Position numbers and translations under genes: made by a program. Positions 19,094 through 53,562 of a stretch of DNA of 64,000 nucleotides are shown here, piece by piece (within the stretch, counting starts at the first letter, position 1; each line of letters begins with the position of its first letter). The DNA is from Chloroflexota bacterium (GTDB taxonomy: Bacteria; Chloroflexota; Dehalococcoidia; UBA2979). The DNA lies in contig CANIRU010000001.1 in the NCBI GenBank assembly GCA_947470025.1, forward strand, positions 7,331 to 71,330, read 5' to 3'. The notes under the pieces were generated by a model. It had not been told where the DNA came from and did no database searches. It saw only the letters and a list, made by a program, of their open reading frames with translations.

Positions 19094-19480
19094 CTACTCG
19101 TTGTCGGAAGTCGTGCCGACGGGGAGTTCCAGCGTCATCGTGGTGCCGTTGCGGCCGTCGCTCTCTGCGGTGAGCCGTCCGCCGTGCAACACCACGATCG
19201 AGCGCGCGATCGACAGGCCCAGGCCGGTGCCGTGCGCGAACCTCGCGCCGTCCGGGGTCCGATAAAACTTCTCGAATACCCGCTCGAGGTCATCGGGCGC
19301 GATGCCGATGCCCGTGTCGCGCACGACTACGGTGGCGCGCTGGTTCCACAGGTGCGTGCTCACATCCACCCAGCCACCGGATGGCGTGAACTTCACGGCG
19401 TTCTGGAGGAGGTTCTCGATCACCTGCTGGATGCGCGTCGCGTCTGCCGAGACGCGGGCCTCGTTCAGGTCGGTGCGCGG
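19094..19480 (-). pseudogene. Orphan 3' fragment of a sensor histidine kinase (HATPase_c domain only)
   Basis: ...DLNEARVSADATRIQQVIENLLQNAVKFTPSGGWVDV...VRDTGIGIAPDDLERVFEKFYR...GTGLGLSIARSIVVLHGGRL is the N/G1/G2 boxes. The frame hits a TGA immediately upstream with no HisKA or sensor domain, and no response regulator is nearby. Confidence 0.6.
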
Positions 19481-21332
19481 CGACCGGGCGGCCGTCCGAC
19501 ATGCGGAAGGTGGGGAACGAGCAGTCCCAGATCAGGCGACGGTTCGAGCAGTCGCTGAGGATGCTCGTCACGAGCGAGGTGTACCCGGCGGGCACCACCT
19601 GCTGATCCTGCGGCTTGAAGTCGAGGAGCGTGCGCCCGGTCGCGTCCGTCACCTTGCGCAGCGAGACGGGGTCGAGCGGCCTCGTGCCGGCCTGCTGGAT
19701 CGAGGGCGCGCCGACCATGCTGCCATTCCGCGCGAGGGTGGTGTAGGCGTACGCCATGTCGAGGAGCGTGATGTTCGCGCCGCCGGTCGCGATCGATGGG
19801 CCGTAGTTGGACGGGTCGTCGAGGGTGGTGATGCCCATCTTCTTCGCAAGGTCGATGACGTTGCCGATGCCCGCCACGGCGGCGGCGCGGTTGGCTGGGC
19901 AGTTGAGCGAGGAGCCGAGCGCGATCTTGATCGGCACGGGGCCGTTGGTCTTGTTGCCCGCGCCGGGGTTCTCGCACTTGTAGCCGTCCGAGGTGATGAA
20001 GGGCTCGTCCCAGATGATCGAGCTGGGGCCGTAGCCCTGCTTCATGAACAGCGTGAGGTATACGAATGGCTTGAACGAGGATCCCGGCTGGAGGATCGAG
20101 GTGGCGTAGTTGTTGCTCCCGCGGATCTCGGGGCTGGTGTCGTCGTAGTTCCGGCTGCCGACCATGAGCAGGATCTCGACCGTGCGGGCGTCGATGCTGA
20201 CCATCGACCCGTTGTGCGCGCCGATCGGGTCGGCGTGCTTCTTCAGGTTCTTCTCGAGCACCGCCTGCGCCTGGTCTTGCAGGGTGACGTCGAGAGTCGT
20301 GGTGACGGCGAGGCCGCAGCGCTGCACGCAGCGCTCGCCGAAGCGCGCGACCAACTCCTGGCGGACATACTCGACGAACCAGGGGGCGCGCAGCGGGAGC
20401 GCCTCCTCCTGGGCCTTCAGCTCGATGGGCTCGCGCTTCGCGGCGTCCGCCTGCTCCTGCGTGATGTAGTCGTGCATCACCATCAGGTCGAGGACCTCGC
20501 CCTGGCGCCACTTGGCGCCCTCCCAGCTCGAATAGGGGGAGTGCAGCGCGGGCGACTGGGGGATGCCGGCGATCATGGCAGCCTGCGCGAGGGTGAGCTC
20601 GCTGGCGTGGACGCCGAAGTAGCCCTGCGCGGCGGTCTCGACGCCGTTGTAGACGCCGCCGTAGTTGATGACGTTCAGGTACCACTCGAGGATCTGCTCC
20701 TTCGAGTAGTGGTTCGCGACCTCGGTCGCGTAGATCGCCTCCTGGAGCTTCCGGGCGACGGACTGCGCTGACCGGTCCTCGGGCGAGATGAGCGTCTGCT
20801 TCACGAGCTGCTGGGTGATGCCGCTGGCCCCGCGCCCGCTGAATGGGTTCCCGGTCGCGCGAAAGTTCTCGTACGCGGCGCCGAGCGTGCTGCGATAGTC
20901 GACACCGTTGCTGTCCCAGAAGTTCTGGTCTTCCGTGGAGATCGTGGCGTCGATCATCGCCTTGCTGACCTGGTCGAGGCGTGCGGGGAACCGGAAGCCG
21001 CCGTCGCTCTCCGGGAAGCGGTATAGCAGGACGCCGTTCCGGTCGTAGATCTGCGCGCCGCCATAGTTGGCGACGGCGGCCAGCATGTTCGCGGGGGTGT
21101 TCAGGTCGGCGACCGCGTTGTCGTAGAACCTCGTCGCGCCGATCACGAGCGCGGCGGCGGCCGCGAACGGGAGCAGGAGCATGGGCACGAGCATCATCAG
21201 TCCGATGCCGAGGCGCCCGTTTCCGCCCGCGGCGGTGCGACCCGCCCGGGCGCGGCGCCCAATGAACACGCTCCGGCGCAGCCGGCCGGCGTTACGATCC
21301 TCGAACCCTGCATGCTCCAGCGGAGCTGCCAT
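19470..21332 (-). pseudogene. Class A penicillin-binding protein (transglycosylase plus transpeptidase), 3'-truncated before the KTG box
   Basis: The GT51 motifs EDQNFWDSNG and GASGITQQ are present. The transpeptidase has SSFKPF (SxxK) and SSLN (SxN), but after ...TSLVTSILSD the frame degenerates into non-PBP sequence that overlaps the HK fragment in another frame. No KTG(T/S) motif is present. Confidence 0.7.
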
Positions 21333-41164: not shown

Positions 41165-44100
41165 CTATCGCGCTGGGATGGTGAGCACCTGGCCGTCGCG
41201 CACGGCGTAGGTCGGGCCGGCGATGTTGTTCGCAACCGCAATGACCTGCCAGTCGACACCGACTTTCACGCCGATGCCGGAAAGCGTGTCACCAGGCAGC
41301 ACCGTGTACGACTGCACCGCTCTCGGCGCTGCTGCGGCGGCCGGCGTCGCCAGTGCAGCAGCCGGCGTCGCGGCGACGGACTTCGTCAGCGTCACGGCGG
41401 TCGAGACAGACAGTCCGTTGGGGAAAGCTGCCGCGAACGTGTCACGAAGGAACGCCGGGCCGCCCACGACGAGGAGGCGATACACGCCGCCCAGGCCCTG
41501 GACCCAGACGCCCGTCGCACCCTGCGCCACCGCCGCCGACTCGAGCTGAGTGACCGTGCCGCCGTTGAAGACGGCGAGCGCGAGGCCGGTCGAACTAAAC
41601 GTCGCCGCGCCTCCGAATCCACCAGGCGCGGCCACAGGAGCCGGCGGTGCCTGGTTGATGCGCTGCACGGAGAAGAGCGTGAAGTGCGTGACACTCGCCG
41701 TAACCGACAGCGAACCGTCCGCATTGACCGTGACGACCGCGGGCGTCGTAACCCAACTGGTGCCGCTCCAGAAGGCGAGCGTGATGTTTCCCGCGGTGCT
41801 GCCCGCCGGGACCGAAGACGCCGGCACGGTGAACGTCAGCGACACGGGGACTGCGAGCGTCGTTACGGCGATGCCGGACGACATCGCGTTGATCTGGAAA
41901 CCGGAGACGAGTGATGCACCGGAGGGCGGCGGAGCAGCGTTCGCCAGCGCGAGGTCGTTCGTGACTGACGCGACCTGCACCGTGGTGCCCGCGGGCAGGG
42001 CGCCTGCCGGGACCGACACGGTCGCCGACACACCGGTCGAGGACGTCGTGCCGACGTTCACGCTGGACGTGCCCGTGGTCGCGCCGACGTTCACATTCGA
42101 CAGCGTGGCACCCACCACATCCGGACCAGCGGTGCCACCCGAGGGCGGGACGAACAAGCTGCCACCGCCGGTACCCGGGTCAGGTGTCACTATTGGCGCG
42201 CTGATCGTGAACGTCGGCGTAGCTACCACGCTTCCGGCGTTTCCAATCGCCGTCGCCGGAATCGTGACACTCACGGTCTCGTTCGCGCCAATGCTGTATG
42301 CCGCCGTCGCGGGTACCGTGACGGTAACGATGGTCGCGCTCGTGCGCACCACCGCGGCCACTGCAAGCGTGCCCCTGACGGCCGCGTTCCAGCCTGCCGC
42401 CTCGGCCCCGGCCGAAGTCAGGCCGTTGATGATGTTCTGGCGCTGAGCGTCGAAGGTCGCGCCCGCAGCGACCCACGTGCCGTTGGTCAGCGTCACTATG
42501 ATCGTGCCGCCGGAAGAGGTCAGCGTGGACGACGGCACGCCGCTGCTCAGCGAGCCACTGAGAGACGCTGACGTTGGTACAAGGCTGAACGGCGACGAGG
42601 CGACCACCCCCGATGCGGTGCCGATCGCCGTCGCGGGGATCGTCGCGGTGACGGTCTCGCTCGCTGTGATGTTGTAAGTCGCGATGGCCGGTAACGTAAT
42701 GGTCACGACCGTCGCGCTCGTTCGCACGACGTTGCCGACGACCAAGCCGGTCTTCACCGTCGCGTTCCAGCCGGCGGCCTCGGCAGCAGCCGAGGTCAGG
42801 CCGTTGATGATGTTCTGGCGCTGAGCGTCGAACGTCGCGCCCGCGGCCACCCAATTGCCGTTCGTCAACGTCAGGATGACGGTGCCGCCACCGGCGACGA
42901 CGCCGGCCTCAGTGTTCGCGCCGCCCTGGATGGTGCCCGTCACCGCCGCGGAAGCCGGGAGGACGTTGAAGGTCGGGCTGCCGACGATGGCAGACCCACT
43001 GACCAGTGCGGCACCGGGGACAGTGACCGTGATCGTCTCGCTCGAGGCGATGTCGTAGGTCGCGACGGCGGGCAGGGTGATCGTGATGACCGTCGCGCTC
43101 GTGCGGACCACGTTGCCGACGCTGAGGGCCGGCTTCACGGTCGCGTTCCATCCGGCCGCGGCCGCACCGCCTGAGGTCAGGCCGTTGATGATGGCCTGGC
43201 GCTGAGCGTCGAACGTGGCGCCTGCGGCGACCAGCGTGTCGTCGGCGATGGTGACGATGATCGTCCCGCCCCCGGCGACGAGTGCGCCCTCGCTGTTCGC
43301 GCCACCCTGGATCGTGCCCGTGATTGTCGCGGTCGCGCCGACGTTGAACGTGTTGCTCGTGGCAGCCGTCGCGCCCGCGCTGGTGAACCCCAGCGTGTAG
43401 CCGTTGCCGGCCACGCTCAGCGTCAGGTCGTTGAAAGTGGCGATGCCCGCCACCGCGGCGCGGGTCGTCGTGCCGGCGAGGACACTCGCAGACGGGTTCG
43501 TCCCGACGGCAGCGACCACGTTGGTGGTGTCTGAGGCGCGGAGATTGCCAAACGCATCACGGATCTGCACGGTCATCGCCGGGGCGATCGCCGCGAGCAC
43601 GGCGACGTTGCTGGGCTGCTGCGTGATGACCAGCGCGCTGACGGCGCCCGGGTTCACGGTGAACGACACCGAGGCGACGTGCGTCCCGGACAGGCCGACT
43701 TCCTGCGCCTTGATCGTCGTCGACTGCGCTCGGTCAAGCGTCGTCGCGAGCGTCGTGGTCGCGAGCCCAGCCGTGAACGACACCGAGGTCGTGAAGCTAT
43801 CCGTACCGGAGGTCGGGCCGTTCGAGGCGCCCGAGAGCGCGTACGTGAGCGTCTTCGCACCGGCATAGGCCGTCGAGCCGTTCGCACCGTCGGCGACATT
43901 GCCAAAGAGGTCGACCGCCGTGATCGTCGTGAGGTTGAAGGAGACGCCCGCCGTCTGCGGACCGGCAGGCGCGACGGTCACCAGGTGGTCAGCGGCCGCG
44001 TGCCGGATCGTGAACGCCGGCGAGGAGTCGACCGTGCGCGAGACGGAGTTCAGTGTCGCGGTGAACCGCAGCACCTTGTCTGTGCCGACCAGATCGATCT

Positions 44101-45256
44101 TGAGGGCATTCGCTGAGAAGTCGGCGACGCCCGCCACTGCGGCTTTCGCGGCGGTGCCGGTCAGCGTGCCGGCGCCCGTCTGCAGGCTGGCGGTGACAGT
44201 CGCGGTCGCGTCGGTGCCCGTGGTAACGAGGTTTCCGGAAGCATCAAGGATACGAATGACGGGCTGTTGGGCGAAGGCCACACCGGCGACAGAGGTCGCG
44301 GAGGGCTGCGTGAACACAGTCATCGACAGACCGGCGCCGTTAGCGACCGTCAGGGCTGCCGTGGCACCGGTGACGCCGTTCGCGGGAGCCGCCAGGTTGG
44401 CGCCGCCGGCGTTCTGTACTGTCGCGGTGATTGTCGGCGTTTCGGAGGCGTTGGTGAGGATGAAGCCGGTCACGTTAGTGATGCCCGACGTGAAGGTCTT
44501 CGCACCGGATTGGGCGGTGACCGTCGGCGCGGTCGCGTTCGGCGAGTTGGTCGCCGTCGTCGTGAAGGAGAGATCGACCGTGCCGCCGTTAACCGACGTC
44601 GCGGTGTTGTTGAACTGATCACGCGCGGTGACGCGGACCGCAAACGCGGTACCCGCCGTCAGGGACGTGGTCGGCGTGCCGCCGCCGTTGTTCGCGTTCA
44701 AGGACTGCGTCAGGAAGTTGGTCGGCGAGCCCGCGATCTCCGCGAGCGCGCCCGCATTGCCGGACGCGGTCGAGGTGCCGCTGAACGTCAGTTTGCCGGA
44801 AGCGAGCGGCGTGCCAGCGGTCGGCTGAACCGTGACCCCGGTGTACGTGAGCACGCATGCAGCAGTGGAAGCACTTGCAACGGTAAACGTAATCGTCGAG
44901 GCCGCAGGGGTCGCGGTGTTCAGCGTCGCTGCGCCCGCTCCGATGTCGATGTCGCAGCCACCACCTGTGGGGGTGAGGGTAATCGTGGCGGACGTGTCGA
45001 ACCGGAACCCGGACGGAGCGTTCAGAATAATCGAGCCCGTCCCGATGTCGGCAGCGCCCGCCTCAGTGAGGACGGGGCCGGTCAGCGACGTGAATGCGGC
45101 CCCTGCCGCACCCTGAGCCGTGTCAGCCAAAATCGCGCCGCCGCCCGTTGCCACGGTGATCGAGGGCGGTGCCGCGTGGACAACGCTGCTCCACAGAAGA
45201 AGCCCGGCCGCAGCAACCGAGAACCCGAAGACGGCCTTGGCCGCATTCGAGCGCAA
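41165..45256 (-). CDS. Giant (1363 aa) secreted LysM-domain surface protein with Ig-like (Big) domains and three ~127-aa tandem repeats
   Basis: Signal peptide MRSNAAKAVFGFSVAAAGLLLWSSVVHA. Big-like segments (VIRILDASGNLV..., VQIRDAFGNL...). C-terminal LysM YTVLPGDTLSGIGVKVGVDWQVIAVANNI...GQVLTIP. Confidence 0.8.
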   Translation of the reverse strand: MRSNAAKAVFGFSVAAAGLLLWSSVVHAAPPSITVATGGGAILADTAQGAAGAAFTSLTGPVLTEAGAADIGTGSIILNAPSGFRFDTSATITLTPTGGGCDIDIGAGAATLNTATPAASTITFTVASASTAACVLTYTGVTVQPTAGTPLASGKLTFSGTSTASGNAGALAEIAGSPTNFLTQSLNANNGGGTPTTSLTAGTAFAVRVTARDQFNNTATSVNGGTVDLSFTTTATNSPNATAPTVTAQSGAKTFTSGITNVTGFILTNASETPTITATVQNAGGANLAAPANGVTGATAALTVANGAGLSMTVFTQPSATSVAGVAFAQQPVIRILDASGNLVTTGTDATATVTASLQTGAGTLTGTAAKAAVAGVADFSANALKIDLVGTDKVLRFTATLNSVSRTVDSSPAFTIRHAAADHLVTVAPAGPQTAGVSFNLTTITAVDLFGNVADGANGSTAYAGAKTLTYALSGASNGPTSGTDSFTTSVSFTAGLATTTLATTLDRAQSTTIKAQEVGLSGTHVASVSFTVNPGAVSALVITQQPSNVAVLAAIAPAMTVQIRDAFGNLRASDTTNVVAAVGTNPSASVLAGTTTRAAVAGIATFNDLTLSVAGNGYTLGFTSAGATAATSNTFNVGATATITGTIQGGANSEGALVAGGGTIIVTIADDTLVAAGATFDAQRQAIINGLTSGGAAAAGWNATVKPALSVGNVVRTSATVITITLPAVATYDIASSETITVTVPGAALVSGSAIVGSPTFNVLPASAAVTGTIQGGANTEAGVVAGGGTVILTLTNGNWVAAGATFDAQRQNIINGLTSAAAEAAGWNATVKTGLVVGNVVRTSATVVTITLPAIATYNITASETVTATIPATAIGTASGVVASSPFSLVPTSASLSGSLSSGVPSSTLTSSGGTIIVTLTNGTWVAAGATFDAQRQNIINGLTSAGAEAAGWNAAVRGTLAVAAVVRTSATIVTVTVPATAAYSIGANETVSVTIPATAIGNAGSVVATPTFTISAPIVTPDPGTGGGSLFVPPSGGTAGPDVVGATLSNVNVGATTGTSSVNVGTTSSTGVSATVSVPAGALPAGTTVQVASVTNDLALANAAPPPSGASLVSGFQINAMSSGIAVTTLAVPVSLTFTVPASSVPAGSTAGNITLAFWSGTSWVTTPAVVTVNADGSLSVTASVTHFTLFSVQRINQAPPAPVAAPGGFGGAATFSSTGLALAVFNGGTVTQLESAAVAQGATGVWVQGLGGVYRLLVVGGPAFLRDTFAAAFPNGLSVSTAVTLTKSVAATPAAALATPAAAAAPRAVQSYTVLPGDTLSGIGVKVGVDWQVIAVANNIAGPTYAVRDGQVLTIPAR
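42197..43336 (-). repeat. Three in-frame tandem repeats (378-381 bp each) inside the giant surface-protein gene
   Basis: ggccgttgatgatgttctggcgctgagcgtcgaa recurs at 42421, 42799 and 43180. The protein units TGTIQGGAN(S/T)E...ATFDAQRQ(A/N)IINGLTS...GWNATVK... repeat three times. Confidence 0.85.
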
Positions 45257-46180: not shown

Positions 46181-46939
46181 CTAGTAGGCGCGTTCGCCGC
46201 CGTTGATGTGCAATGTCTGGCCGGTAATGAAGCTGCCGTGCTCGCCGCAGAGGAAGACGCACATCGCGGCGATCTCGTGCGTGCTGCCCTGGCGCCCGAC
46301 CGGGATGCGCTTCAGCCGAGCGGCGAGGCGGGGCGACAGCTCTTCCTCGCGCGTGTTGATGAGGCCGGGGACGATGCAGTTGGTGAGGATGCCGTGCGGC
46401 GCGAGTTCCTCGGACAGCGCGCGCGTCAGGCCGATCACGCCGACCTTCGCCGCAGAGATGTGCGCGCCCTCATGCCCGCCCTGGAACGCGGACAGGCCAC
46501 TGAAGTTGATGATGCGGCCCCAGCCGCGTTCCATCATCCCGGGCACCGCCGCCTTGGAGGCGATGAACGCGGCGTCGAGGTCGGTCGCGAGCACGCCGCG
46601 CCAGTCCTCGTACGTCATGTCGGTGAACGACTTACTCGGGCGCGTCGCCGCGTTGTTCACGACGATGTCGATGCCGCCGTACTCGCGCAGGCCCTCCGCA
46701 AGCATCGCCTCGAACGCACCTCGGTCGCCGACGTCCGCGATCATCGCGGTCGCGCGGCCGCCGTCGCGCCGGATGACCTCCGCGACGGCCTCGGCCTCGT
46801 CGCGATTGCTGCGGGCGTTCACGATCAGCGCCGCACCCGCACCTGCGAGCTCGAGGGCGATCGCCTTGCCGATGTTGCGGCCCGCGCCGGTGACGAGCGC
46901 CACCTTACCGTCGAGCTGCCCCGTGCTGAACTGCGTCAT
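46181..46939 (-). CDS. SDR-family oxidoreductase (FabG-like)
   Basis: TGAGRNIGKAIA, NNAA, and the YxxxK context are present. Confidence 0.95.
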   Translation of the reverse strand: MTQFSTGQLDGKVALVTGAGRNIGKAIALELAGAGAALIVNARSNRDEAEAVAEVIRRDGGRATAMIADVGDRGAFEAMLAEGLREYGGIDIVVNNAATRPSKSFTDMTYEDWRGVLATDLDAAFIASKAAVPGMMERGWGRIINFSGLSAFQGGHEGAHISAAKVGVIGLTRALSEELAPHGILTNCIVPGLINTREEELSPRLAARLKRIPVGRQGSTHEIAAMCVFLCGEHGSFITGQTLHINGGERAY

Positions 46940-47092
46940 CGCGATCCTCGATCCGTGCTCCGGCAGGCGTGCGCGAGCCCGCGCGCCGACACTGTGGCGC
47001 GCGGGCTCGATTGAGGCAATGGTGCCCGAACGTCGAGGCCCGGAGGTCTGAGCGGGGCGGGCCGGGTATTCCGAGCATGAGCCCCAAGACGA

Positions 47093-48256
47093 TTACCGCA
47101 CGAGGGTGACGGCGGTGTCGCTGGTGAACGACCGGATCTTCGCGATGAACGCGTCACGAATGAACGACGCGCCACCGATGATGAGCAACTGGTAGGCGCC
47201 AGATGCATCCTGCGCCCACACGCCCGTGGCATTCGCCGCGCGGGCGGCTGCCTCGAGCTGGGCGACGGTGCCGCCGCGGAACACGACGAGTGCCTGCCCG
47301 CTGGGCGCGTACACCACCGGGGCGGCGAAGTTGCCCGTCCCGCCGGTCGGCGGACTCACTGTGGTCGGGACCGACGTGGGTGTCGGAGCCGGCGCGGCGG
47401 TCGTGATGTTCACGGTTACCGTGTCGCTGACGATCTCGGGCGACCCGTCCGAGACGGCGACACGGAACTGGAGCGCCGACCCGGTCATCGGCGGTGCGAC
47501 AAAGCTCGTGCTGGCGCCGCCGTTCGAGGAGAGCGCGACCTGCGTGCCGGCTATCTGCGTCCAGTTGTAGGACAGGGCGGTGCTGTTCGGGCTGGACGCG
47601 GTCACGGTGAGGGTCACCTGCGCGTCCGGGCGGACGCTGAGGTCCGGGCCGGCATCGACGCTGAACATCTCGCGGTTCGTGGACAGGAATGCCTGACCCG
47701 CGTAGCCGTTCGAGGTCGTGATCGCCGGCAGTGCGATGTTCTCGAGCGTGTAGCTCCCGTCGAACGGCAGCGGACCGTTGTTGCTCAGTGCCAGGTGGAT
47801 GTGCGAGACACCGTTGTTGCCGGCCTCGCCCGGAGGGGCCACGGTGCCGAGACGCTGCCCGCGAATGATGTTCTTACCACGCAGCGTGGATGGGACGAGG
47901 ACGTGGCACATCATCACGGTGGTGCGTGCCGCGTCGCGGATGCTGATGCAACTCGTCGAGGCGTAGCCGACGGTACCGCTGATCGGCGCGAGCACGGCCG
48001 TGCCCGATGTCGCCGCGTCCGTGCGCTGCAGGTCGATCGCGTACGGGTCGTTGGAGTCCGCGACGGAGTGCGTCGCGGTGTTGTAGCCGGCGAGGATCGA
48101 CCACGCGGTCCCTTCCGGTGCCGGGAACGACAGACCGGCCGCTGCGGCCGCGGCGGGGCGTGCGAACAGCAGAGTAGTCGCCAGCGCGAGGAAGGTCGCC
48201 GCCACGGCGATCGTGTGGAGCTGTAAGAGACCGCGCCCGTGGCTTGATACGTGCAT
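47093..48256 (-). CDS. Secreted M23-family metallopeptidase with PKD domain and a C-terminal domain shared with the giant LysM protein
   Basis: Signal peptide. DPYAIDL...GTAVLAPISGTVGY...NNGVSHIHLAL (HxxxD / HxH-like). PKD segment LSYNWTQIAGTQV. The C-terminus ALVVFRGGTVAQLEAAARAANATGVWAQDASGAYQLLIIGGASFIRDAF is shared with the giant LysM protein. Confidence 0.7.
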   Translation of the reverse strand: MHVSSHGRGLLQLHTIAVAATFLALATTLLFARPAAAAAAGLSFPAPEGTAWSILAGYNTATHSVADSNDPYAIDLQRTDAATSGTAVLAPISGTVGYASTSCISIRDAARTTVMMCHVLVPSTLRGKNIIRGQRLGTVAPPGEAGNNGVSHIHLALSNNGPLPFDGSYTLENIALPAITTSNGYAGQAFLSTNREMFSVDAGPDLSVRPDAQVTLTVTASSPNSTALSYNWTQIAGTQVALSSNGGASTSFVAPPMTGSALQFRVAVSDGSPEIVSDTVTVNITTAAPAPTPTSVPTTVSPPTGGTGNFAAPVVYAPSGQALVVFRGGTVAQLEAAARAANATGVWAQDASGAYQLLIIGGASFIRDAFIAKIRSFTSDTAVTLVR

Positions 48257-48341
48257 CGTGGATGCCCCCTAGTCGGCACCCGATGCGCCGTACACCAAAT
48301 TGAACGCGATCAGGCATGAATCGTTCGTCCCAGCGGCGCTG

Positions 48342-51080
48342 CTAGCGAACGGGATTCATCTTGATCCAGGCGTCGATGATCGCGCGTGCGACGGGGCCGG
48401 CCTGTGTTGAACCTGCCCCACCACGCTCTTTCACGACCACCACCGCGATGGTCGGCTTCTCAGCAGGCGCGAATGCGATGAATAGTGCATCCGATGATTC
48501 ACCCGGGGCGACCTCTGCAGAGCCGGTCTTGGCGGCGACGTTGATGCCGGGGATTGCCGCCGTCGCGGCCCAGCCGTCGGTCGTGCCGCGCACCATCATC
48601 TGGGTGACCAGGCGCGCGGTCTCCGGCGACATCGCGCTGCGCCAGGCGCCCGGTGGGTCGTTCAGGAACAGGCGCGGTCGAGGCACCACGCCGCCGTTCG
48701 CGATCGCTGCCGTCGCAAGGCCGAGCTCGAGGGGGCTGATCTGCAGCTGGCCCTGCCCGTACGCCGAGGCGGCGAGCCCGGCGTTCGAGGAGAGGAACTT
48801 CTGGTCGGTGCTGAGACGGCCGGTGCTCGTGGGCAGCGCGAACGGCGGCGCCTCGGTCAGTCCGAGCGCCTGCGACATTGCGCGCAGCTTCGCCTCGCCG
48901 ACGCGGACGCCGAGCTGCGCGAAGTAGGTGTTGCACGAGTACGCGTAGGCATCGGCGGCGGTCTTCGTCTGCTTGCCGGGCGGCTCGTTGTTGCTCGTGA
49001 CCTTCGAGCCGTCGATCACGACTTCCTTCGGGCAGGTCGCCGCGTCCTCGGGCTTCACCAGCCCCGCCTCGACGGCGGCGGCGAGCGTCACGGTCTTGAA
49101 TGTCGAGCCAGGGGTGTAGAGACCCTGCGTCACGCGGTTGAGCAGCGGGCTCTTCGGGTCGTTGAGCAGCCGGGTCCATTCCTCCTCGCCGAAGCTCGGG
49201 TTGAACGTCGGGTTGCTGATCAGCGCGAGAATGTCGCCGGTCCGCGGGTCGATCGCGACCGCGGCGCCGATGCTGTTCCCCATCGCCGCTGCTGCCGTCC
49301 GCTGCAGGCGATTGTCGAGGGTGAGGCGCACGTCGGTGCCCGCGCGCGGGACGTGCAGCAGGTCGCGCCATGTGTCGGCGGGGGTGGTGGTGGTGCGGCC
49401 CATCAAGGTGTCGGACACGGCTGCCTCGGCGCCTGAAGTGCCGAAGCGCGGCGAGGTGAAGCCCAGAGCGTGGACCGCGCTCGGGTCGGTGTAGCGCCGC
49501 AGCGCGCCCGCGGGGCTGAGCACCGTGTCCGCCAGCACTGTGCCGTTGCGGTCGAGCAACCGTCCACGCTCGACGCGCACCGCCTCGAGGTTCAGCCGCT
49601 CGCCGCCGACGCGCGGGTCGTTCGCCAGATCGGGCCGCGCCACCTGCCAGTACCCGAGCCCTGCCGCGATCGCGACGAACCCGGCGAGGAGCGCGTAGGC
49701 GATGTGCTGCGTGCGCCGGACAGCATCGCCAGCCTCGGGGGTGAAGCGCGCAGAGGGCGTCTCTCCGGTGCGCGACATCAGCGCGAGGATCACCCACGCC
49801 ATCAGCATCGAGCTGCCGCCGTAACTGACAAACGGGCTCGTCACGCCGGTGAGCGGCAGCATCCGCAGCACGCCCGCCGACACGACGATGATCTGCACGC
49901 CGACGCTCAGTGCGAGCCCCGCACCCAGGTACTGCTCAAACCGCGAGTCGGAGAACTGCGCGCGCGTCAGCCCTCGCGCCACGAACAGCCCGTAGAGGAG
50001 CACGACGGCGAGCGAGCCGACGAGCCCCCACTCCTCGCCGATCACGGCGAGCGGGTAGTCGGTGTGCGCGGCGGGGATGACCCCGGGGAAGCCGTACCCC
50101 GGCCCGCTGCCGATCACGCCGCCGAAGACGAAGCCTCCGATCGCTTGCAGCGACTGGTACCCGACGCCCCGTGCGTCCGCCCACGGATCGATCCACGCGG
50201 TGATGCGCGTGTGCACGTGCGCCGACGCGGTGTACGCCAGCGGTGCGAGGACCACGAACCCGACGAATGCGAGCGCGATCGCATCGCGCCGCCCGGTGGC
50301 GATGTACAGCATGCCGAGGAACGCCGCGACGAAGAGGATCGCGGGGCCGAAGTCGCGCTGCGCGGCGACAGCGAGCAGGCTGAGCGCCACCATCCCCAGC
50401 AGCGGCAGCCAGTACACCCTCGACGGGATGTCGAGACGGCCGATGCGACCGAGGTTGGTGCGTGCCGCGGTCAGCAGATGGCCGCGCTCGCTCAGGTACG
50501 TCGCGATGAACGCGATCAGCGCGATGCGCAGCACCTCGCCCGGTTGGATCGTGAGCGGGCCGACGCGCAGCCAGATGCGCGTGCCGCTGCCGTTCACGTC
50601 GTCGGCGAGGAACAGCGTGGACAGCACTGCGAGGATCGCGAGGCCCAGCCACAGCGTGCGGAAGCGCCGCATCCACGACAGCAGCGGCGGGAACCCGACG
50701 AGCACGATGAACAGCGCCCATCCGAGCGTGATCCAGAGCACCTGTACGTTCAGCCTGGTCGGCTGCACGCGCGCGATCACCGCGAGGCCCATCGCGCACA
50801 GCATCCAGACGGGCGACAGCAGCAGGGGGTCCCACGTGCGCCGCATCGCGCGCATGAGTAGCGGCGTGACGAGCGGCAGCAGCGCCGCCAGCAGCACGGC
50901 GCGCTCGAGGTCGTTCGGCGGCGCGGTGCGCGTGGTCAGGACGACGGACATCGGCGCCGCGACGAGGACCAGCGCGGGCAGCAGCCACAGCACGACGGTG
51001 TACCGGCGCGGCCGCCTCACCGTCGCGATCGTGGAGGCGGCGAACGAGCCGCCCTCGAATGAACCAGGCAGCGCCGTCAT
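48342..51080 (-). CDS. Natural fusion of SEDS glycosyltransferase (RodA/FtsW) and class B PBP transpeptidase (PBP2/PbpA)
   Basis: True start MTALPGSFEGG... at 51080, giving 912 aa; the upstream part of listed ORF 48342..51707 reads through the FHA gene in another frame. The N-terminal half has at least 10 TM segments with the SEDS motif HTDYPLAVIGEEWGLVGSL. The C-terminal half has STFK (SxxK), SCN (SxN) and KTGS. Confidence 0.85.
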   Translation of the reverse strand: MTALPGSFEGGSFAASTIATVRRPRRYTVVLWLLPALVLVAAPMSVVLTTRTAPPNDLERAVLLAALLPLVTPLLMRAMRRTWDPLLLSPVWMLCAMGLAVIARVQPTRLNVQVLWITLGWALFIVLVGFPPLLSWMRRFRTLWLGLAILAVLSTLFLADDVNGSGTRIWLRVGPLTIQPGEVLRIALIAFIATYLSERGHLLTAARTNLGRIGRLDIPSRVYWLPLLGMVALSLLAVAAQRDFGPAILFVAAFLGMLYIATGRRDAIALAFVGFVVLAPLAYTASAHVHTRITAWIDPWADARGVGYQSLQAIGGFVFGGVIGSGPGYGFPGVIPAAHTDYPLAVIGEEWGLVGSLAVVLLYGLFVARGLTRAQFSDSRFEQYLGAGLALSVGVQIIVVSAGVLRMLPLTGVTSPFVSYGGSSMLMAWVILALMSRTGETPSARFTPEAGDAVRRTQHIAYALLAGFVAIAAGLGYWQVARPDLANDPRVGGERLNLEAVRVERGRLLDRNGTVLADTVLSPAGALRRYTDPSAVHALGFTSPRFGTSGAEAAVSDTLMGRTTTTPADTWRDLLHVPRAGTDVRLTLDNRLQRTAAAAMGNSIGAAVAIDPRTGDILALISNPTFNPSFGEEEWTRLLNDPKSPLLNRVTQGLYTPGSTFKTVTLAAAVEAGLVKPEDAATCPKEVVIDGSKVTSNNEPPGKQTKTAADAYAYSCNTYFAQLGVRVGEAKLRAMSQALGLTEAPPFALPTSTGRLSTDQKFLSSNAGLAASAYGQGQLQISPLELGLATAAIANGGVVPRPRLFLNDPPGAWRSAMSPETARLVTQMMVRGTTDGWAATAAIPGINVAAKTGSAEVAPGESSDALFIAFAPAEKPTIAVVVVKERGGAGSTQAGPVARAIIDAWIKMNPVR

Positions 51081-51646
51081 CGCGCGCCGTTCTTCGCCGT
51101 GTCGCGGACAAGGCGCGCGACCACCGGGCCGAAGCGCACCTCGGTCGACGGGTCGAGGCGCTCGCGCCCAGAGACGCGACGCGAACCGATGTAGGTGCCG
51201 TTCGTGGAACCGAGGTCCTCGACCCACCATGCGCCGCGGTCGGGGAAGACGCGCGCATGCCGAGAGGAGACCTGCCGCTCCGGCAGCACGATCGTGCTCC
51301 CTACATTGCGCCCGATGAGCGCCGGCCCGCGCAGCGCATACGAGCGCCCAGCGAGCCGCCCCGGCTCGCCACCCTCGCCGGTGTACTCGAGCACCTCGAG
51401 GTGATCGCCCACGCGCGCGGGCGCGTCGAGGGGAACGACCTCCACGAGTGCGGTGGGAGCAGACGCGGACGGAGTGGCGACCCCGTACGTGGGGAGAGCG
51501 ACCGCGTAGGGCATCGTGCGTGCGCGCACCTCGGCGCGGAGGGCGCGGATGGCGATCAGCAGGAAGAGGTACAGCGCCGCTGCCACGCCGATGCGCAGCC
51601 CGAGGAGCACCAGCGGCCAGTTGTCCTGCAGCATCCGCTCTCCCAC
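51077..51646 (-). CDS. FHA-domain membrane protein (FhaB/FipA-like)
   Basis: N-terminal TM, then GRNVGSTIVLPERQVSSRHARVFPDRGAWWVEDLGSTNGTYIG. Its TGA stop overlaps the ATG of the RodA-PBP fusion (ATGA). Confidence 0.85.
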   Translation of the reverse strand: MGERMLQDNWPLVLLGLRIGVAAALYLFLLIAIRALRAEVRARTMPYAVALPTYGVATPSASAPTALVEVVPLDAPARVGDHLEVLEYTGEGGEPGRLAGRSYALRGPALIGRNVGSTIVLPERQVSSRHARVFPDRGAWWVEDLGSTNGTYIGSRRVSGRERLDPSTEVRFGPVVARLVRDTAKNGAR

Positions 51647-51766
51647 ACCAACCGATGGGCGCCCCCGCAGCGGCTATGATCGGTGGAACCAGTGTCGCAC
51701 AGGCCAACGGGACGACCGTTGCGATCCCGAGTTGGTCTGGCCAGCGTTGGTTTGGCGGGAGTACAC

Positions 51767-53005
51767 GTGACCGCGGACGGCGACCTCATCGGGCGGCGCT
51801 ACCGGATCGGGCGGTTCGACCGCGCCGTCGGTTCGCTGCGCCGCGCGCCGGGCACGGACACGCGCCTCGACCGCCCCGTCCTGATCTGGATGAGCGAGAC
51901 GAGCGGCGCCGACGAGGATGCGCTGCTCGAGGTCGCGCGCACCGTCGGCCAATCGGCCTCCTCGACCTTCCTTCGCATCCTCGACGTCGCGTACGAGGAC
52001 GAGGGCGTCGCGGTGATCCTCGAGTCCGCCGGCGGTTCGCTGGCGGAGGCGGATGGCCTCGTGCCGATCGAGCTGCGCTCGGCGGCCCAACTGCTGGAAG
52101 CCGTCGACCGCGCCGCCGAGGACACCGAGCTCGTCCCGACGCGGGCCGCACGCATCGACATCTTCTCGGCGGGTGGCGAGGTGATCGTCGACCCGATCGC
52201 GCTGTTCCTTCCCGTCGTGCCCGGCGAGCGCGAGATCCCCGCGGACGTCCTCCGCGAACGCCTGGCCGCGTTGCTCATCGAGCACGCCGAGGATGGCACC
52301 ACGCTCGCGCAGGCGCTGACCGAGGATGCTGCGTCTGGCACACGCGTTGCCGCCCGCGCTCGGGGCGCCCTCGTCGGTGCGGGAGCTCGTGTCCCGTACG
52401 TCGACGACGAACCGACGGTCGCATTTACGGCGCCACCGCCACCGCCCGTATCCACCCCCACACCGCGCGCCACCCCCATGCCGATCTCGCCGCCGACGGA
52501 CGAGGGCGTCGAGGCGTTCGAGCCGGCGCCGGAGCCCGCGTCGACCGCCGAGGTCGTCGCGCCGAAGCTTCGTCGAGCCGCGCTGCCGTGGCGGGTGTTC
52601 GTGCCGCTGTATACCGGGCTCGCCGTCGTCGTCCTCGGCGCGCTGTTCTTCGCGCTGCGTTCGCCGGACGGGACGCCGACGGCCACGCCCACGACCGCGG
52701 CCGGCCAGCAGTCCGGCCCGCCCGCGGTCGCACCGGTCGCCGGACACGTCACGGTCGGCCTTGTGGCGACCGAGGACAGCGCCGTGCGCGTGACGGTCGA
52801 CGGCGTCGTGCAGTTCGACGGCACGCTGGCTTCCGGGCAGAAGCAGTCCTATGACGGCAAGCAGCGCATCGACGTGTGGACGGACAAGGGCAAGACGCTG
52901 AACATCGCGATCAACGGCAAGAACGTGGGTCCGTACTCGCCCGCGATGGGCCACGCCGACTGGAACCGCATCGACTTCTCGTTCTGGCCGGGCTGGACGC
53001 CATGA
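51767..53005 (+). CDS. Pseudokinase - TM - RodZ C-terminal-like (DUF4115-like) fusion protein
   Basis: A GTG at 51767 after ggcgggag; the ORF track starts at 51683. The N-terminus has kinase N-lobe-like RYRIGRFDRAVGSL...DTRLDRPVLIWM with no VAIK Lys and no HRD/DFG. TM: LPWRVFVPLYTGLAVVVLGALFFAL. The C-terminus VRVTVDGVVQFDGTLASGQKQSYDGKQRIDVWTDKGKTLNIAINGKNVG resembles the RodZ periplasmic domain. Confidence 0.5.
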   Translation: MTADGDLIGRRYRIGRFDRAVGSLRRAPGTDTRLDRPVLIWMSETSGADEDALLEVARTVGQSASSTFLRILDVAYEDEGVAVILESAGGSLAEADGLVPIELRSAAQLLEAVDRAAEDTELVPTRAARIDIFSAGGEVIVDPIALFLPVVPGEREIPADVLRERLAALLIEHAEDGTTLAQALTEDAASGTRVAARARGALVGAGARVPYVDDEPTVAFTAPPPPPVSTPTPRATPMPISPPTDEGVEAFEPAPEPASTAEVVAPKLRRAALPWRVFVPLYTGLAVVVLGALFFALRSPDGTPTATPTTAAGQQSGPPAVAPVAGHVTVGLVATEDSAVRVTVDGVVQFDGTLASGQKQSYDGKQRIDVWTDKGKTLNIAINGKNVGPYSPAMGHADWNRIDFSFWPGWTP

Positions 53006-53562
53006 TCGCCCTCGGCATCCTCGTCGAGGATCGCTACGTGCTCGGCGCGACGATCGCCATCGGCGGCGCGTGCACGATCACGCGCGCGCACGACACGCGG
53101 CTGGGCCGCGACATCGCGATCAAACGCGCACGCACGGCGGACGTGGCCTCGGCTGCCCGCCTGCGGATCGAAGCGTCAATGCTCGCGCGCTGCGCGCACC
53201 CAGGCGTCGTGTCGTGCCTCGACCTGATCGAGGACCTCGAAGGCGCGCCCGCACTCGTGCTGCAGCTTGTCGAGGGCGCCAACCTCGCGCAGCACGCCGC
53301 ACGCGGCCCGATCGACGAGCCGGTCGTGCGTACCTGGATCGACGAGGTCACGAGCACAGTCGAGCACCTGCACGCGCGAGGCGTCGTGCACGGCGACCTC
53401 AAGCCGGCGAACGTGATGATCACCACCAGCGGCTGCGCGATCCTCGTCGACTTCGACCGCGCCCGCGACGCCTCGCCCGAGGCGATCGAGCACGAGCGGC
53501 GCGCGCTGGACGCGCTGCGATCCTGGCTCCTCGGACGGTTCGAGGCGCCTGCCGCCGACTAG
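53002..53562 (+). CDS. Short (186 aa) non-RD Ser/Thr protein-kinase-like protein lacking the C-lobe
   Basis: ATGA overlap with the upstream gene. IAIKRA (VAIK), HGDLKPANV (catalytic loop), ILVDFD (DFG-like). It stops about 25 aa later, and the cupin gene begins 8 bp downstream on the other strand. Confidence 0.6.
   Translation: MIALGILVEDRYVLGATIAIGGACTITRAHDTRLGRDIAIKRARTADVASAARLRIEASMLARCAHPGVVSCLDLIEDLEGAPALVLQLVEGANLAQHAARGPIDEPVVRTWIDEVTSTVEHLHARGVVHGDLKPANVMITTSGCAILVDFDRARDASPEAIEHERRALDALRSWLLGRFEAPAAD

Follow-up and report, generated by a model that had tools for sequence, protein, structure and literature searches.

Does a single open reading frame (ORF) in a Chloroflexota genome encode both a SEDS-family (for shape, elongation, division and sporulation) peptidoglycan polymerase and its cognate class B penicillin-binding protein (PBP) and, if it does, is the fusion real, how did it arise and what would the protein do? 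The question is raised by a stretch of 64,000 nucleotides from a Chloroflexota bacterium (contig CANIRU010000001.1 of assembly GCA_947470025.1; hereafter the window), in which an earlier note, made from the letters of the DNA, had read a SEDS-PBP fusion coupled to an upstream gene for an FHA protein. Here, we show that the gene, a fused rodA-pbpA, is a real, conserved and natural single-chain SEDS polymerase and cognate class B PBP. Domain searches, catalytic residues, topology, structural model and conservation across assemblies all agree on this, and the overall reading of the earlier note is upheld. To the joint reading of a single-chain peptidoglycan synthase of high-GC Chloroflexota, which would have arisen from adjacent rodA and pbpA genes through loss of a stop codon and would be controlled through the FHA protein and phosphothreonine, we assign a probability of roughly 0.9.

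The fused gene and its two halves

Translation from the ATG yields the 912-residue protein that had been described, starting MTALPGSFEGG and finishing NPVR*, and no stop codon separates the SEDS half from the transpeptidase half, a continuity that is seen in the ORF and again in fused orthologues from independent assemblies. The sequence around the synthase start reads gcgcgATGAcggcg, in which the ATG (51080-51078) overlaps the TGA of the FHA gene (51079-51077) in a 4-bp ATGA (51077-51080), just as the earlier note had it. Third-position GC content is 0.84 in the stop-to-stop ORF around the gene (48342-51785), as expected for a real gene in a window with 70% GC. A promoter and terminator scan of positions 46,900-52,100 returned nothing beyond shuffled expectation and picked up no minus-strand terminator after the synthase.

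The N-terminal half matches the Pfam family FTSW_RODA_SPOVE (PF01098) over residues 111-437 with 212 bits (cut-off 26.4, E 1.7e-62), and a phmmer search of the PDB finds solved SEDS proteins at E 5e-26 to 6e-19, namely FtsW 8P1U/8BH1 (5e-26), RodA 6BAR/6PL5, and 8TJ3. The SEDS signature on which the half had first been recognised, HTDYPLAVIGEEWGLVGSL, is indeed there at residues 339-357. D341 aligns with D255 of Thermus thermophilus RodA (6BAR; position counted in the phmmer alignment), the essential aspartate that SEDS proteins carry in an H-T-D-F/Y motif of their large extracellular loop, QPGE at residues 179-182 falls on the QPxE motif in the phmmer alignments to solved SEDS proteins, and both are invariant across 48 fused homologues. 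An AlphaFold2 (AF2) model built on 48 homologues has a mean predicted local distance difference test score (pLDDT) of 91 and a predicted template-modelling score of 0.85. Hydropathy and the model agree on 13 membrane helices in total, where at least ten had been claimed. The ten helices of the SEDS core lie at 85-105, 107-128, 141-158, 180-209, 221-240, 244-262, 265-285, 343-375, 380-404 and 422-437 in the model, and homology together with the distribution of positive charges would place both ends of the core in the cytoplasm. The extra helices at the N terminus fall outside the region that phmmer can align to solved RodA or FtsW; this pre-core pair is kept clade-wide and, in two database proteins taken up below (P0054 and P0105), sits between an FHA domain and the core.

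A linker of about 22 residues joins the tenth SEDS helix to the membrane-anchor helix of the PBP. Given that a SEDS protein ends in the cytoplasm and a class B PBP begins there, the two can be joined with their topology unaltered. In split relatives such as L001 (locus numbers of the genome collection are prefixed L, database proteins P), the rodA tail, a stop codon and the pbpA N-terminal tail stand in place of the linker. Beyond relatives of at least 79% identity, the linker varies in sequence and in length, from about 22 to 40 residues.

For the periplasmic half, Pfam Transpeptidase (PF00905) scores 195.6 bits (cut-off 22.1, E 1.5e-57), and the STFK, SCN and KTGS motifs reported earlier are all in place as S659-T-F-K662, S715-C-N717 and K851-T-G-S854. 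Foldseek superposes this half on PbpA of Mycobacterium tuberculosis (3UPP/3UN7) with a target-normalised TM-score of 0.84 and a root mean square deviation of 2.6-3.0 Å over about 445 columns, and its nearest sequences in the PDB are 4MNR and M. tuberculosis PbpA 3LO7/3UN7. Pfam finds no PF03717 pedestal in the synthase, the NCBIfam model TIGR03423 (pbp2_mrdA) reaches 261 bits (cut-off 455), and FtsI models stay far under their cut-offs; given the missing pedestal, this half is of the PbpA subtype of class B PBPs, not MrdA or FtsI. The earlier note had framed the protein as a RodA-PBP2 or FtsW-FtsI pair and had proposed searching for FTSW_RODA_SPOVE, PBP_dimer and Transpeptidase. The cognate SEDS-class B PBP pair stands and the first and last of these families are matched, while PBP_dimer (PF03717) is not, and the pair is specifically of the actinobacterial RodA-PbpA type, with a small PbpA N-terminal domain and no canonical pedestal. 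The two catalytic centres are thus complete and kept across the clade, with the fold and topology of a SEDS domain followed by a PbpA transpeptidase. The features are collected in Table 1.

Table 1 Features of the synthase gene and its neighbourhood (window coordinates; residues are those of the encoded protein)
Feature	Coordinates	Strand	Evidence or remark
Fused rodA-pbpA gene	48342..51080	minus	912 aa, single unbroken ORF; ATG at 51080
Cytoplasmic N-terminal tail and two extra transmembrane helices (25-50, 58-78), residues 1-78	50847..51080	minus	Hydropathy, AF2
SEDS (FtsW/RodA/SpoVE) 10-helix glycosyltransferase core, residues 85-437	49770..50828	minus	Pfam PF01098, phmmer, AF2
D341 codon (HTDY motif), predicted catalytic Asp of the polymerase	50058..50060	minus	Alignment to 6BAR
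Cytoplasmic linker SRTGETPSARFTPEAGDAVRRTQH, fusion junction, residues 438-459	49704..49769	minus	Hydropathy, AF2, clade alignment
PbpA membrane-anchor helix, 13th transmembrane helix, residues 460-481 (AF2 helix 448-481)	49638..49703	minus	Hydropathy, AF2
PbpA-type N-terminal domain (PBP_dimer_2, PF21922), residues 505-575	49356..49568	minus	Sub-threshold Pfam and Foldseek
D,D-transpeptidase domain, residues 605-902	48375..49268	minus	Pfam PF00905, motifs, PDB matches
FhaB/FipA-like gene, 189 aa, N-terminal transmembrane helix and FHA domain	51077..51646	minus	FHA residues 110-173, E 4.6e-16
Divergent membrane-protein gene, C-terminal RodZ_C	51683..53005	plus	Pfam E 1.2e-8
Short Ser/Thr kinase gene, without transmembrane helix or PASTA	53002..53562	plus	Pfam Pkinase E 1.4e-22
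Secreted protein, weak M23-like region and PKD, 85 bp past the synthase	47093..48256	minus	Sub-threshold Pfam M23

Conservation and origin of the fusion

The ENA holds an identical protein of 912 aa (P0001, 100%), and the proteins P0002-P0050 are fused as well, at 51-82% identity and lengths of 870-926 aa, from ENA, NCBI, JGI and Logan assemblies on contigs of up to 644 kb; P0014 and P0049 are shorter, both being fragments from contigs of <4 kb. Every one of P0002-P0050 has both domains, and the tenth SEDS helix, linker and anchor helix are colinear throughout. The transpeptidase motifs are kept across this clade too, with STFK (STYK in P0012, SIFK in P0018), SCN, and KTGS (KSGS in P0034). Among relatives that bear a name, the nearest are metagenome-assembled genomes (MAGs) called ‘Dehalococcoidia bacterium’ and ‘Chloroflexi bacterium’, and relatives at 80% identity go under the NCBI name ‘FtsW/RodA/SpoVE family cell cycle protein’.

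In the databases, the fused glycosyltransferase-transpeptidase architecture occurs in more than 100 proteins. An exhaustive phmmer search of 1.84 billion 50%-identity cluster representatives gave 44,641 matches, among which the window's whole clade counts as one representative. Both halves are found in 133 of the best 150 of these (median length 882 aa), which makes the fused architecture widespread, with the proviso that a fused query favours fused matches in a protein database and that such proportions are indicative only. We also searched 80 loci of the genome collection, among the matches listed, for both halves with hidden Markov models built from alignment A2 and stop-to-stop ORFs; this is a sample and not a census, and the closest relatives, the NCBI MAG proteins at about 80% identity, are not among the loci surveyed. 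Among these matches the genes are fused in 18 Anaerolineae, Caldilineaceae, Chloroflexus and Leptolinea loci, in one of Coriobacteriia (L041) and in one of Clostridiales (L034), and they are split and adjacent in Actinomycetota, Limnocylindrales, Ardenticatenaceae, several other Chloroflexota and most Firmicutes. Fusion appears to be the usual state in the window's own clade and, for the most part, in Anaerolineae. The survey of fused and split relatives that the earlier note had proposed shows the window's clade all fused and other lineages mixed, and the description of covalent fusion as uncommon was overstated, given these frequencies and the fact that such fusions had already been described.

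To place the fusions we built a neighbour-joining tree of the SEDS domain from 124 sequences with 100 bootstraps. The all-fused clade of the window is monophyletic in 100/100 bootstraps, as is a group of fusions of about 1050 aa (one assigned by NCBI to Bryobacteraceae); Coriobacteriia fusions are nested inside split Actinomycetota in 99/100, and L034 groups with split Firmicutes in 100/100. Together with the Anaerolineae, these placements imply at least four or five independent fusions, of which that of the window's clade appears to be a separate, Chloroflexota-specific event. How it could have come about is illustrated by L001, from the Chloroflexota MAG CP_BM_ER_18, in which (at L001:10760-10830) rodA ends ...AVQGV-TAG and is followed directly by an in-frame ATG-LDDLRGNVRR... 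that opens the N-terminal tail and anchor helix of pbpA. As TAG and ATG stand in one frame, the loss of a single stop codon would yield a fusion built like that of the window. We infer that the fusion arose in this way, by loss of the rodA stop, from the adjacent rodA and pbpA of an FhaA-FhaB-(PstP)-RodA-PbpA-(PknA/B) cluster.

Larger SEDS-transpeptidase fusions were seen in other phyla, namely P0078-P0095 (about 1010-1100 aa, with P0084 assigned to Bryobacteraceae) and P0102-P0104 of Spirosoma and relatives (about 1326-1338 aa). P0102 has two SEDS-matching stretches and a CarboxypepD_reg-like domain, and resembles the Pedobacter ginsengisoli protein of PMC12516126. These large fusions are independent architectures.

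Alignment shows that Anaerolineae-type relatives, whether fused or split, have lost all three transpeptidase motifs. SxxK has become, for example, GLLVQ or GTALGP, SxN has become CPG, and the KTG region is deleted. The fused, motif-less loci are L002-L006, L008-L011, L013-L016, L018-L021 and L064; the split ones are L029, L033, L044 and L071, joined by the database proteins P0053-P0076. By motif search, 76 of the 133 fused representatives (among the best 150 of 44,641) lack both SxxK and KTG. The SEDS aspartate is kept in all Anaerolineae-type relatives, after varying residues (HSD, HGD, ISD, VSD). This looks like a widespread module of SEDS and pseudo-transpeptidase, of which we found no description, and it suggests that a tethered PBP module can persist purely as a partner of the polymerase.

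Gene neighbourhood

The fhaA-fhaB-pstP-rodA-pbpA-pknA-pknB cluster is conserved in Actinobacteria and some Firmicutes (PMC6554272). Judged by its neighbours, the window locus is the rodA-pbpA portion, in a reduced version, of this FHA/Ser-Thr-kinase cell-wall cluster, which Actinobacteria, Chloroflexota and Firmicutes share. The coupling to the FHA gene that had been claimed is confirmed by the match to the FHA domain (Table 1) and by the 4-bp overlap, which also occurs in L081 and L083. In these two loci (synthase 82% and 61% identical, respectively) the whole block recurs, that is, the RodZ_C gene followed by the kinase gene, diverging from the FHA gene followed by the fused synthase. The kinase orthologue of L081 is 47% identical, and L083 has a kinase at the equivalent position together with an additional FhaA-like gene. 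In the Anaerolineae-type L085 (28% identical) FhaA and FhaB are followed by an unrelated gene and this by the fusion, and L084 has a shorter, weakly matching version of the RodZ_C gene. In the genome collection, 57/78 loci have a same-strand FHA gene upstream, and kinase genes lie near the locus, chiefly downstream and typically in Actinomycetota, in 35/78 (both among the matches listed).

On the far side of the FHA gene the divergent RodZ_C gene is itself coupled to the kinase gene, the ATG of which (53002) overlaps its stop in an ATGA at 53002-53005. The RodZ_C protein has 440 aa, and its residues 24-130 weakly resemble the N-lobe of a kinase (BLASTP E 0.01 versus the neighbouring kinase), another residue standing in for the catalytic Lys; it may be a pseudokinase. 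Compared with its L081 orthologue, the short kinase is missing about 21 residues, the APE motif among them.

Downstream of the synthase come the M23-like/PKD gene and a short-chain dehydrogenase gene. The earlier note had placed an M23 peptidase immediately downstream, and a gene does follow after 85 bp, but its identity as a peptidase is not borne out: Pfam M23 gives 25.4 bits (cut-off 28.7), the K319L-like PKD match is at E 2.9e-13, NCBIfam matches the PKD-like part only, and phmmer against the PDB finds the PKD domain only. Nor is it a conserved neighbour, as unrelated genes take its place in all four relatives inspected (L081, L083, L084 and L085), and it probably lies outside the conserved module.

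Three further observations concern the surroundings. Two genes from the module, positions 41165-45256 (minus) encode a secreted protein of 1363 aa, rich in Ala, Thr and Gly, with internal repeats and a terminal LysM (Pfam E 5e-9), probably a peptidoglycan-anchored surface or S-layer-like protein. It shares with the M23-like/PKD protein a domain of 73 residues (51% identity, E 5e-18; 41378-41599 and 47093-47311, both minus), which forms the C terminus of the M23-like/PKD protein (residues 316-387), stands just before the C-terminal LysM in the 1363-aa protein (1220-1292) and matches no Pfam family. About 27 kb from the synthase, a class A PBP is encoded at 19290-21332 (minus; Transgly E 1.2e-48, Transpeptidase E 8e-12), so the organism also has a conventional bifunctional synthase.

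Alternative readings

That the organism really has two genes, joined by a sequencing or assembly error, is an explanation worth considering because L001 is one codon away from a fusion, with its TAG and ATG in frame, and a single base error could mimic one. The same error would have to be found in the identical ENA protein and in more than 50 fused orthologues of 51-82% identity from independent assemblies, in all of which the junction is colinear, and the third-position GC content is that of a real gene; we regard an artefact as next to negligible. Hardly more credible is the proposal that the transpeptidase half does not catalyse and serves the polymerase as a scaffold or activator, as it appears to do in Anaerolineae-type relatives. 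The destruction of the motifs in those relatives, fused and split, and the lack of both SxxK and KTG in 76/133 fused representatives do indicate that such a module can persist without catalysis, but the window protein has STFK, SCN and KTGS in place and its clade (P0002-P0050) keeps them, which makes loss of catalysis here very improbable.

The identity of the SEDS half calls for more care. Several observations weigh against a RodA-PbpA synthase under FHA and phosphothreonine control. For the SEDS half the NCBIfam FtsW model scores 211 bits and the RodA model 159.5 (both under their cut-offs), and PDB matches run to about 95 bits for FtsW versus 72-76 for RodA, so the label ‘RodA’ rests on synteny and phylogeny and not on model scores. 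PBP_dimer_2 (PF21922) is matched at only 22.5 bits (cut-off 27), and the FHA protein reaches 95.8 bits with NCBIfam FhaB_Rv0019c (cut-off 125), over profile positions 3-157 of 158. Of the canonical cluster's other members, FhaA and the PASTA kinase are missing from the window, the sole kinase found near the gene being short and on the other strand, and no PP2C gene stands between the FHA gene and rodA, which overlap (elsewhere in the window the scan for PP2C was not exhaustive). A phospho-acceptor Thr in the linker was considered and rejected: TGETPS and F(T/S)P are kept only in relatives of at least 79% identity, and no site is nominated. The higher scores of FtsW models and structures would suit a divisome synthase of FtsW-FtsI type, or a general-purpose or sole SEDS synthase, as would the lack of mreB, mreC and mreD among the annotated window genes and of a second SEDS gene among window ORFs of at least 90 aa. 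Mycobacterial RodA-PbpA, moreover, affects cell length and septation and is not known to be a classic MreB-guided Rod system. On the other side, the annotated neighbours (metabolic and transport genes besides the FHA and kinase genes) include no mur or fts family and do not form a dcw cluster, although here, as for mreBCD, not every ORF was scanned; the PBP half has a PbpA N-terminal domain instead of the PF03717 pedestal typical of FtsI, and structurally it comes closest to M. tuberculosis PbpA; the SEDS domain falls among rodA-pbpA loci that have FHA and kinase genes beside them; and the protein of the conserved divergent gene has a RodZ_C domain. With just 64 kb of the genome in view, the missing second SEDS gene says little. 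A divisome or general-purpose role is thus unlikely, and the assignment to RodA-PbpA is the one favoured by synteny, PbpA subtype, phylogeny and the neighbouring RodZ_C gene.

Proposed mechanism

The RodA-type SEDS part would polymerise lipid II into glycan strands, with D341 as the catalytic residue. The 13th helix, an ordinary class B PBP anchor, would put the PbpA N-terminal domain and the transpeptidase outside the membrane, where the tethered transpeptidase would cross-link the emerging strand, as in two-chain RodA-PBP2 and FtsW-FtsI. The covalent link would enforce 1:1 stoichiometry and co-localisation of the two activities. Control would come from the FhaB-like protein, which could bind a phosphothreonine written by the neighbouring short kinase, or by the pair it forms with the RodZ_C membrane protein, and thereby govern the activity or placement of the synthase. 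The enzymatic activities, the cellular role and the phospho-target are in this scheme predictions from sequence.

A direct link between FHA protein and synthase is suggested by the conserved 4-bp coupling and by two natural fusions in the same order, evidence of the Rosetta-stone type: P0054 (1049 aa) is an FHA-SEDS-PbpA protein (FHA 74-136, SEDS 239-563, transpeptidase 733-1037) and P0105 (604 aa) an FHA-SEDS fusion, and the domain order in both is the gene order of the ATGA-coupled pair in the window. The translated FHA domain contains GR, SSRH and NG, which would correspond to the usual phosphothreonine-contact positions. A bolder version can be drawn up, in which the protein would be a self-contained synthase gated by phosphothreonine and docked by the FhaB-like protein, would serve as the principal or only SEDS synthase for both elongation and division, and would carry a PbpA that was ancestrally an activator or scaffold, with cross-linking secondary. 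The last part is suggested by the loss of all transpeptidase motifs in most related fusions, those of Anaerolineae type. Taken jointly, these proposals are speculative, and we consider the whole doubtful.

Relation to known systems

Natural SEDS-class B PBP fusions were described in 2025 as ‘bifunctional class B synthases’, on the basis of 117 InterPro proteins with both domains (Microlife 2025;6:uqaf025, PMC12516126), with examples from Senegalimassilia faecalis (931 aa; glycosyltransferase, PBPA_dimer and transpeptidase) and Rhodococcus jostii (947 aa). The Senegalimassilia protein has the same domain order as the window protein and a similar size (931 versus 912 aa). A Coriobacteriia fusion, L041, was recovered here as a homologue and represents a fusion event distinct from that of the window clade. 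The published tally of 117 proteins compares with at least 133 clusters at 50% identity in our search. We found no earlier explicit report of natural RodA-PBP fusions in the literature beyond PMC12516126 and no paper on the Chloroflexota clade. By its sequence the window protein is a further, independently derived and catalytically intact instance of an architecture that has been known since 2025 and is annotated in databases.

The best sequence matches of the periplasmic half (E 9e-49) are 4MNR, an Eggerthella lenta structure deposited as ‘D,D-transpeptidase domain of peptidoglycan glycosyltransferase’, and 4JBF/4N1X/4RA7 from Atopobium parvulum; all have TM-scores of 0.85-0.86 and about 30% identity to the window protein, and in all of them only the periplasmic half is solved. 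As L041 matches 4MNR over residues 523-969 at E 1.8e-115, and given the name chosen by the depositors, the 4MNR and 4JBF group most likely represents soluble halves of natural fusions, which have thus probably been in the PDB since 2013.

RodA (Rv0017c) and PbpA (Rv0016c) of M. tuberculosis are the same two enzymes, encoded in the same order downstream of an FhaB-like gene, whereas in the window they form one polypeptide. The M. tuberculosis cluster has a PP2C gene before rodA, FhaA, and PASTA kinases downstream, in place of which the window has the divergent RodZ_C gene and the short kinase. Mycobacterial RodA likewise has an N-terminal extension ahead of the DPLLLP motif. With the two-chain RodA-PBP2 and FtsW-FtsI complexes (6PL5, 8TJ3, 8BH1/8P1U) the window protein shares the SEDS fold, the catalytic aspartate and the general plan of an anchor helix next to a SEDS core under a periplasmic transpeptidase. 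In those complexes a PF03717 pedestal mediates activation, whereas the window protein is one chain, with a small PbpA N-terminal domain and a pair of additional helices at its N terminus. Class A PBPs (GT51 and transpeptidase) are likewise single chains with a fixed 1:1 ratio, but their polymerase has an unrelated fold, a soluble GT51 domain versus the polytopic SEDS core.

Significance

The gene leaves current understanding unchanged and is less unusual than first thought, a tidy new example and not a discovery. A natural single-chain SEDS-class B PBP sidesteps the stoichiometry and co-purification problems of two-chain complexes, and an intact, confidently modelled member (pLDDT 91) could suit cryo-electron microscopy and assays of lipid II polymerisation and cross-linking. 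The link between phospho-signalling and the SEDS synthase is debated in mycobacteria, and the FHA-SEDS-PbpA fusions point to a direct physical link from Ser/Thr-phospho signalling to the SEDS synthase. Recurrent, independent fusion is comparative evidence that RodA and PbpA work as an obligate 1:1 unit.

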